In this document: in pieces, positions 13,856-13,955 of the stretch | Numbering within the stretch: the first letter of the stretch is position 1 | How the letters are laid out: each line of letters opens with the position of its first letter | NCBI GenBank assembly: GCA_016180085.1 | Contig: JACPBX010000007.1 | Coordinates: 1 to 53,745, forward strand | Reading direction: 5' to 3' | From: Candidatus Woesearchaeota archaeon | GTDB lineage: Archaea; Nanobdellota; Nanobdellia; Woesearchaeales; UBA10216 | Length of the DNA: 53,745 nt | Made by a program: the position numbers and the translations under genes | Notes under the pieces: model-generated | What the model was told of the DNA's origin: nothing | Databases searched by the model: none | What the model saw: the letters and a program-made list of their open reading frames with translations, nothing else

Positions 13856-13955
13856 GCCGGCGTCGCATAGCTTGGTCATTGCGAGGGGTTGAGATCCTCT
13901 TGGCGAAAGCCTCGCGGGTTCAAAACCTTAGTGGGTGAAACTCCCGCCGCCGGCG
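13856..13955 (+). tRNA. Type II tRNA, anticodon GAG in canonical register, serine-like body, 17-nt intron at 59/60 (13925-13941)
   Basis: Acceptor GCCGGCG/CGCCGGC plus G73; anticodon arm AGGGG-UUGAGAU-CCUCU; variable arm UGGCGAAAGCCUC; T stem GCGGG/CCCGC; BHB UUCA/UGAA with AA|A and AC|U bulges. Isotype uncertain. Confidence 0.85.

Follow-up and report, generated by a model that had tools for sequence, protein, structure and literature searches.

A putative accessory module of a serine-type tRNA(GAG) and a predicted cognate antisense RNA in a Woesearchaeal genome

The DNA analyzed here (the window) is a contig of 53,745 nucleotides (nt) of a Candidatus Woesearchaeota archaeon (JACPBX010000007.1, assembly GCA_016180085.1). 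It is contig C36 of a genome of 1.0 Mb that is 83%-complete (G000), and the other contigs of this genome are likewise given as C-numbers. Between a PfkB-family kinase gene and an adenosylhomocysteinase (AdoHcyase) gene, the window carries a class II transfer RNA (tRNA) gene on the plus strand at 13856-13955, the target of this study, in which a serine-type body is combined with the leucine anticodon GAG. A partial copy of this tRNA lies upstream, within a predicted antisense mini-gene on the minus strand.

The target is a real tRNA gene: with the model RF00005, Infernal returned it from the whole genome at 36.1 bits (E = 2.6e-6), above the gathering score of 29 bits. It was not detected by ARAGORN, either in the default mode or with introns allowed, and it was not reported by the Rfam gathering run on the window, because a 17-nt insert interrupts its T loop; several other tRNAs were mis-called by ARAGORN. 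The tRNA genes of this genome are heavily interrupted, and about half of them are visible to standard tools; a T-arm-first scanner, allowing T-loop inserts, was used to find further ones. Contigs of four groundwater metagenome runs, all from one study, carry the sequence at the locus, which is therefore no assembly error.

The pre-tRNA is 100 nt long and the mature form would have 83 nt after the predicted splicing. The geometry is canonical, with a 7-bp acceptor stem (GCCGGCG / CGCCGGC) and a 5-bp T stem (GCGGG / CCCGC). U8, C9 and G26 are present, the D arm consists of a GCA/TGC stem with its loop, the anticodon stem AGGGG / CCUCU encloses the loop UUGAGAU, and the discriminator, at 13955, is G73. 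An initial annotation of the locus had listed the acceptor pairs G1-C72, C2-G71 and C3-G70, G73 and the variable arm GGC-GAAA-GCC, all of which were recovered when the sequence was re-read; the D loop that it called short has 12 nt and is not especially short.

The insert in the T loop is a putative bulge-helix-bulge (BHB) intron. Its flanks form a perfect hBHBh' motif, GCGGG-TTCA-[AAA]-CC..GG-TGAA-[ACT]-CCCGC, made up of the T stem, a 4-bp helix (TTCA/TGAA) and the 3-nt bulges AAA and ACT. Cleavage past the second base of each bulge would leave the normal T loop TTCAAAT. Many tRNA genes of the genome have inserts at the same T-loop site, ending in TGAA(A/G)NT, and a splicing endonuclease gene is present (C40:45896-46156, PF01974 at 97 bits). 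The target is probably spliceable, its intron being removable by the predicted BHB cleavage. One stretch of the intron, CCTTAGTGGGTG, recurs unchanged as 12 nt of the variable arm in the canonical tRNA-Leu(GAG) (C18:15300-15313); the match, with a rough chance expectation of 0.003, involves the loop thought to be read by the archaeal leucyl-tRNA synthetase (LeuRS). CTTAGTG is present also in the small intron of tRNA-Ser(GGA) (C11:6553).

The anticodon arm can be read in two registers, both noted in the initial annotation and both present in the sequence. The canonical one (G26, five pairs, U32 U33) gives GAG followed by A37, a nucleotide confirmed also in the tRNA-Leu(CAG) of the window. A slip by one nucleotide (GAGGG / GTTGAGA / TCCTC) gives UGA at 13890-13892, with G32 and no nucleotide 26. 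The cloverleaf energies are -36.1 kcal/mol for the canonical and -37.0 kcal/mol for the slipped form, the latter being 0.9 kcal/mol more stable. Folding energies alone leave the choice of register open; comparison decides. A variant of the locus, with ~6-18 times the depth of this organism in each of the four groundwater runs, differs by a compensatory double change of A12-U23 to C-G and by A27 to G and G29 to A. In the canonical stem, all five pairs are kept and the last two changes yield a G-U and an A-U pair, whereas the slipped helix gains an A-C mismatch in its middle. Moreover, a related tRNA (L004) of a genome from a different family (G052) pairs well only in the canonical register. The register-slipping tRNA-Ser(UGA) suggested by the initial annotation is thus disfavored, and these comparisons favor GAG as the anticodon, with A37.

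The identity elements of the target point to serine. The identity set of archaeal LeuRS consists of A73 and a sequence-specific reading of the variable arm, and G73 is an antideterminant for this enzyme and a determinant for the seryl-tRNA synthetase (SerRS) (PMC9976931). The target carries features that SerRS reportedly uses, namely G73, a long variable arm and a G30-C40 pair that is present in either register, and its variable arm is like that of tRNA-Ser(CGA) (TTGCGAAAGCTAT). The comparison with canonical leucine tRNA genes covered four of this genome (GAG, UAG, CAA and CAG) and five of its relatives. The variable loop CUUAGUG is found in all nine, and A73 in each of the eight whose 3' end was found; the target has neither, its variable loop being GAAA.

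A BLAST search of the target against 201 genomes of the order gave no match in the two genomes of the same family and only weak matches elsewhere, the best being to tRNA-Ser(GCU) genes (L002 and L003) in further Woesearchaeal genomes. One groundwater contig from the same samples agrees with the target over nucleotides 7-34 and then continues as UUGCUAA-CCCCU, a perfect Ser(GCU) arm. The body of the target therefore descends from a tRNA-Ser(GCU) whose anticodon loop was altered. No tRNA-Ser(GCU) was found in this genome with a hidden Markov model of class II 5' halves and motif scans; this means little, as the assembly is incomplete, and the target may have replaced that gene or the gene may be unassembled. 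The genome has a single SerRS gene (C15:35297-36565) and a single LeuRS gene (C18:18589-21306), the latter divergent, with a score below the NCBIfam cut-off. From the identity elements of the target, its serylation by SerRS would be expected. The combination of serine identity elements and a leucine anticodon in one gene, which the initial annotation had proposed, holds for G73, the long variable arm and the G30-C40 pair, and extends to the Ser(GCU)-derived body.

For the meaning of the codons, the AdoHcyase of the window (12282-13544, minus strand) was aligned with 116 homologues; the proteins nearest to it are labeled Woesearchaeota. Of its CTC and CTT codons, 13 of 21 lie in columns with at least 80% leucine, several of them with 100%, as do 7 of its 12 CTG codons; none of either group falls in a serine column. 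AGG, TTY, AGC and TCA keep their standard meaning. A reassignment of CUN to serine was rejected, as CTC, CTT and CTG occur at invariant leucine columns. This agrees with the earlier remark that CTT and CTC stand at conserved leucine positions and that any effect of the tRNA would be partial or conditional. The initial annotation had also named the lack of any other Ser(UGA) gene as a point that would count against it; the genome has both a canonical tRNA-Ser(UGA) with two introns (C6:5928-6075) and a canonical tRNA-Leu(GAG) with A73, and the target is therefore supernumerary for either reading. CUU and CUC together make up 4% of codons.

The second gene of the locus, divergent from the first, would encode a minus-strand RNA of ~40 nt. 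Positions 13785-13800 copy 13860-13875 of the tRNA gene and positions 13801-13818 copy 13880-13897, in the same orientation and with four D-loop bases skipped; the copy sits 38-71 nt upstream of the target. The 34 complementary positions cover the D arm and the whole anticodon stem-loop. A predicted promoter, composed of AAAAAG resembling a B recognition element (BRE) and the TATA box TTTATATA, precedes the complementary region, and the T-run TTTTTCTTTTT, a predicted terminator, follows it; a small GC hairpin precedes the T-run in the predicted mini-RNA. In this RNA, a single-stranded 5' part would match the loop and stem of the anticodon arm, and a 3' hairpin holds the anti-D-arm sequence. 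The duplex energy is -62.7 kcal/mol versus -29.5 +/- 3.6 kcal/mol for shuffled sequences (z = -9.3), and a net cofold gain of -29.8 kcal/mol is left after the unfolding of both RNAs. Among 18 tRNAs, the next-best partner after the target reaches -42.0 kcal/mol. Within the two scored blocks, the copy departs from the tRNA by three substitutions, each of them T>C or G>A, changes that keep G-U pairing for a minus-strand RNA only.

For the target tRNA, a weak candidate promoter, GGTAAAC-TAAAAATG, was read from the sequence. Canonical tRNAs of the genome have TTTAWAWA at about -36 to -27, and the supernumerary ones weaker YWTAWGAAW-like boxes. The candidate TATA of the tRNA (TAAAAATG, plus strand) and the BRE/TATA of the mini-gene (minus strand) are interleaved within 35 bp (13820-13854). 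Their pre-initiation complexes may be mutually exclusive, which would amount to a possible transcriptional toggle.

Other functions of the copy were considered and rejected. The mini-RNA has no C or D boxes, unlike a C/D-box guide RNA; as a splint making a BHB cleavage site it is unsuitable, because the heteroduplex has one 4-nt bulge, on one strand only; and an integration (att) scar is at odds with discontiguous blocks that have their own promoter and terminator. In the literature, no description was found of an antisense RNA gene dedicated to a tRNA, nor of such tRNAs in Woesearchaeota.

The module is not unique in this genome, as seven further class II tRNAs have G73, an acceptor starting with GCCG and non-serine anticodons, giving eight with the target. 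The one with anticodon CCU differs from a Ser(GCU) loop at position 34 only. Ordinary class I tRNA-Phe(GAA) and tRNA-Arg(CCU) genes are also present. An upstream copy of their own arms accompanies all eight supernumerary tRNAs, against 1 of 11 canonical tRNAs, a doubtful case (Fisher p = 1.2e-4). The layout of the mini-genes is the same in all eight: BRE/TATA, ~25 nt, antisense blocks and a T-run, in antisense orientation. When duplex energies were compared in an 8 x 18 matrix, the best partner of each mini-RNA was its own neighbor, by 9-20 kcal/mol. Across the eight modules, 10 of 13 transitions are of the kind compatible with a minus-strand RNA (p = 0.046). In the seven other modules, the mini-gene is divergent, lies ~180-300 nt upstream and is complementary to the variable arm and D arm of its own tRNA.

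The design of the target, directed at the anticodon arm and D arm, recurs in G052 together with the same type of T-loop intron. There, the tRNA loop is TTTGAAAC and the mini-gene carries GGTTTGAAACTCC; the loop and its copy both differ from those of the target, so the partners changed together. In the genome of a sister genus (G059), class II supernumerary tRNAs with UAA and UAU occur alongside a canonical A73 leucine set; these two have mini-gene partners, whereas the canonical tRNA-Ser(UGA) and tRNA-Leu(GAG) have none. The anticodons of the family match common codons, CUG ranking 5th, CUU 11th, AGG 12th, UUC 17th and UUU 19th of 64, which is compatible with the idea of mistranslation and no proof of it.

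The module occupies a 434-nt spacer between the kinase and AdoHcyase genes. The same two genes are only 46 nt apart in a relative whose two proteins show 83% and 82% identity, and in two other close relatives the module is absent at the same site. It is an accessory insertion, and homology to the variant contigs, with unrelated flanks beyond, sets its limits at 180 bp (Table 1). The same spacer holds one copy of a dispersed intergenic repeat, GCCGGGCA-NN-TGTCCAGTGTCCAGTG, which occurs in the window at 519-540, 11908-11975, 13628-13636 and 13705-13735 and at ~15 further sites of the genome. The shorter GTCCAGTG has 49 occurrences versus ~30 expected, mostly as the longer unit, and ATGTCCAGTG is found upstream of the G052 and G059 modules, too.

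Table 1. Coordinates of the module, of the other supernumerary tRNA genes and of canonical leucine tRNA genes (window positions unless a contig is named).
Feature	Location	Strand	Basis or remark
Two-gene module limits, 180 bp	13779..13958	both	Homology to variant contigs, unrelated flanks beyond
Class II tRNA gene, serine-type body, anticodon GAG, G73	13856..13955	+	RF00005 36.1 bits, cloverleaf
Anticodon GAG, canonical register (U32 U33 GAG A37 U38)	13891..13893	+	Cloverleaf; variant changes at 13884, 13886
Variable region T-GGC-GAAA-GCC-TC, 13 nt	13901..13913	+	Compared with Ser(CGA), Ser(UGA) and Leu tRNAs
Putative BHB intron of 17 nt, at T-loop positions 59/60	13925..13941	+	hBHBh' read from sequence
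Candidate weak tRNA promoter, about -36 to -23	13820..13833	+	Read from sequence
Predicted ~40-nt antisense RNA, pairing with tRNA nucleotides 5-20 and 25-42	13780..13821	-	Copied blocks, duplex energy
BRE-like element and TATA box, predicted mini-gene promoter	13841..13854	-	~24 nt before first complementary base
T-run, predicted terminator	13773..13783	-	Follows last complementary base
Supernumerary tRNA, CAG	C22:56668-56755		
Supernumerary tRNA, CAG	C35:1277-1364	-	
Supernumerary tRNA, CAG	C14:62503-62616	-	
Supernumerary tRNA, CAG	C14:10855-10967		
Supernumerary tRNA, AAG	C13:3751-3812		To contig end
Supernumerary tRNA, GAA	C23:14180-14291		
Supernumerary tRNA, CCU	C41:16186-16297	-	
Canonical tRNA-Leu(GAG)	C18:15197-15338		Adjoins LeuRS gene
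Canonical tRNA-Leu(UAG)	C23:33529-33630		
Canonical tRNA-Leu(CAA)	C26:224-347		
Canonical tRNA-Leu(CAG), 5' part	48659-48826	+	Acceptor GCGGGGG, variable arm CCCTTAGTG

Several other tRNA genes of the genome are unusually built. The tRNA-Leu(CAG) of the window has an insert of ~45 nt in its D loop and a long insert past A37. No T arm or 3' acceptor strand was found before the open reading frame that starts at 48848, nor a matching 3' half in the assembly, and it may be a split tRNA gene. The canonical tRNA-Leu(UAG) (C23) has an 18-nt tandem repeat within its T arm (GGCGGTTCGAATCCGTTC GGCGGTTCGAATCCGCC), and a normal T arm requires that the repeat is removed or one copy ignored. At 50011-50188 (minus strand) lies a proline-like tRNA gene with acceptor GGGGCTG/CAGCCCC and A73, carrying two long inserts, in the anticodon region and the T loop, of the conserved family CAGCCCTTTT...GGGGGAAAACGG...GAAWGT. 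The long tRNA inserts of the genome include two conserved families: a first one, TGACC(C)TTTT..AAAAGG(G)TCAATCCAAAAACG, mostly past position 37, and a second one, CAGCCCTTTTT..CCCTGGGGGAAAACGGCTATGAAAGT, in T loops; examples are C3:6383-6420, C18:15233-15290, C6:8253-8385 and C11:14773-14962. Free copies of the first family lie just outside tRNA genes, downstream of those for Val-CAC and Leu-UAG and upstream of those for Arg-CCU and His; they may thus be small mobile hairpin elements. Lastly, 14 nt from the 3' end of tRNA-Ser(GGA), TCCCAGTCCCGGCG, are repeated 45 nt downstream of that gene (C11:6617-6675).

Taken as a whole, the locus may be an accessory two-gene RNA module, in which a serine-type tRNA(GAG) and its cognate antisense RNA bring about conditional mistranslation of leucine codons as serine. 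This reading is put forward tentatively, as somewhat short of an even chance; expression, splicing, serylation, decoding and toxicity are steps that we infer. SerRS would charge the free tRNA, and serine would be placed at the leucine codons CUC and CUU. The neighboring antisense mini-gene offers a concrete route to a conditional effect, since the predicted mini-RNA would normally sequester the tRNA: its 5' end would pair with the exposed anticodon loop and the rest with the anticodon stem and D arm, a duplex that would unzip the cloverleaf. In the target type the anticodon would be blocked, and in the other seven modules the variable arm that is read by SerRS. Transfer RNAs persist for long, unlike short RNAs without structure, and a shortage of the short RNA after transcription shut-off, module loss or infection would therefore release the stable tRNA and permit the mistranslation. 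The logic would be that of toxin-antitoxin or abortive-infection systems, or else of a switch for regulated mistranslation.

A number of observations weigh against this interpretation. A37 next to G36 is unusual for a reader of CUN codons, even if the tRNA-Leu(CAG) of the window has it as well. The identity rules were worked out in distant archaea, and the divergent LeuRS of the lineage might ignore position 73. A set of eight tRNAs with the potential to mistranslate, including four readers of the very common CUG, is a heavy load for a 1-Mb genome, and that load may argue for a role other than decoding. As for the antisense RNA, the wobble-bias test is of marginal significance; the abundant variant has kept its mini-gene copy as it is in this organism though the tRNA has changed at four paired positions, and two of these four changes weaken the duplex, so no co-evolution is seen at that short distance. 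Among the public runs listed for window positions 13300-14300, there is no RNA run.

In another explanation, the pair is real and the tRNA takes no part in decoding. It would be a tRNA-shaped regulatory or donor RNA, such as a decoy of a tRNA-binding enzyme, the cargo carried by a small selfish element or a donor of seryl groups in a non-ribosomal reaction; its anticodon could drift, and its availability would be controlled by the antisense RNA. The anticodons indeed vary, with four CAG, GAG, AAG, GAA and CCU in this genome, UAA and UAU in G059 and GAA in G052; four CAG copies would be very costly if all of them took part in decoding; and many bacterial allo-tRNAs with non-serine anticodons, especially UAU, are inactive in translation and lie near toxin-antitoxin systems or transposons (PMC5389517). 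A decoy, however, has no need of a fully canonical cloverleaf (7/5 geometry, U33, a 7-nt loop and spliced TTCAAAT), and an antisense RNA aimed at the anticodon loop, or at the variable arm in the other modules, is sensible if decoding and charging matter. We consider this explanation unlikely. Still less probable is an extra tRNA-Leu(GAG) isoacceptor, charged by a divergent LeuRS that tolerates G73 and a non-canonical variable arm. It would account for GAG in the favored register, the abundance of CUU and CUC, the A37 common to the tRNA-Leu(CAG) and the low family score of the enzyme; yet the conservation of CUUAGUG and A73 in recognizable leucine tRNAs implies that the enzyme still reads them, Ser(GCU) is the nearest relative of the body, the LeuRS gene already has a canonical tRNA-Leu(GAG) beside it, and a dedicated antisense gene would be superfluous for an ordinary isoacceptor.

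Two further readings would make the tRNA harmless or defunct. As an additional tRNA-Ser(UGA) in the slipped register, without nucleotide 26, the target would have the slightly more stable cloverleaf, and its GUUGAGA loop and UU-GGC-GAAA-GCC resemble the CUUGAGA and UU-CCC-GAAA-GGG of the tRNA-Ser(UGA) of a related genome (G167). The mismatch created by the G29-to-A change of the variant and the G052 relative both speak for the canonical register, while G32 and the missing position 26 are abnormal and a canonical tRNA-Ser(UGA) is already present, which makes this reading very improbable. The lowest probability is given to a decaying duplicate of tRNA-Ser(GCU), with the upstream copy as a scar left by duplication or integration. 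In favor of it, the upstream element copies part of the tRNA, and close relatives lack the tRNA at this site. Against decay, all stems and the BHB motif are intact, and the far deeper variant shows the compensatory C12-G23 pair; a module of this type, with a copy that co-varies, is found again in another family. Scars of integration are contiguous and have no promoter, whereas here two discontiguous blocks have their own promoter and terminator, a design common to all eight modules.

A wider reading would be that of a new class of toxin-antitoxin or abortive-infection systems, in which the toxin is a serine-charged tRNA directed at a common non-serine codon, a cognate and unstable antisense RNA keeps it inactive, and the class has spread and diversified by anticodon switching across DPANN archaea. 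This extension is rather unlikely on present evidence. In nature, it is rare for the charging signals of a tRNA to be at odds with its anticodon, and such tRNAs are the raw material of genetic-code change and programmed mistranslation. The present genome, of ~1 Mb, has a family of eight or more, and a matched antisense gene goes with every member. If true, this would be the first dedicated RNA that switches off a single tRNA and the first tRNA used as a conditional toxin or a proteome-diversifying device. The tRNA, the antisense RNA and SerRS would make a clean test system of three short RNAs or proteins. Most tRNAs of these organisms escape annotation pipelines, which would label the target 'Leu'.

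In the CUG-Ser yeasts, a serine-charged tRNA-Ser(CAG) likewise bears a leucine-family anticodon on a serine-type tRNA. There, the codon is reassigned genome-wide, whereas the present genome keeps CUC, CUU and CUG as leucine codons and a canonical tRNA-Leu(GAG) coexists with the target. Type I toxin-antitoxin systems share with the module a small, separately promoted, divergent or overlapping antisense RNA matched to one neighbor, and they are multi-copy, accessory and diversifying; at the sequence level, the target module has such a cognate antisense gene with promoter and terminator. In those systems, the antisense RNA is directed at the mRNA of a small toxic peptide, and here it would be directed at a tRNA with putative toxicity. 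Mistranslating proline tRNAs of the Streptomyces type are reportedly paired with a dedicated synthetase paralogue and not with an antisense RNA. These tRNAs of Streptomyces and its relatives combine proline identity with non-proline anticodons, and regulated mistranslation has been proposed for them (PMC10404621). The disagreement of identity and anticodon is as in the target, but they are bacterial and belong to class I.

The interruption of the target has its own parallels in archaeal tRNA genes with non-canonical BHB introns, known from Thermoproteales and ARMAN/DPANN (PMC4090602, PMC5829648). They show, like the target, an intron outside 37/38, an hBHBh' motif and a genome-encoded endonuclease; they account for the interruption only, not for the mixed identity or the partner. 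The closest known counterparts are the bacterial allo-tRNAs, which have serine identity and mostly non-serine anticodons, including those for Leu, Arg AGR and Ile AUA (Mukai et al. 2017, PMC5389517). They insert serine at sense codons in E. coli and are accessory, often near toxin-antitoxin systems or transposons (PMC5389517). The target is alike in its serine identity, with a long variable arm and G73, and in its non-serine anticodon. No dedicated antisense RNA gene is described for the allo-tRNAs, which are defined by an 8/4 or 9/3 geometry; the target, in contrast, is archaeal, of 7/5 geometry, interrupted by a BHB intron and accompanied by a predicted antisense RNA gene of its own.

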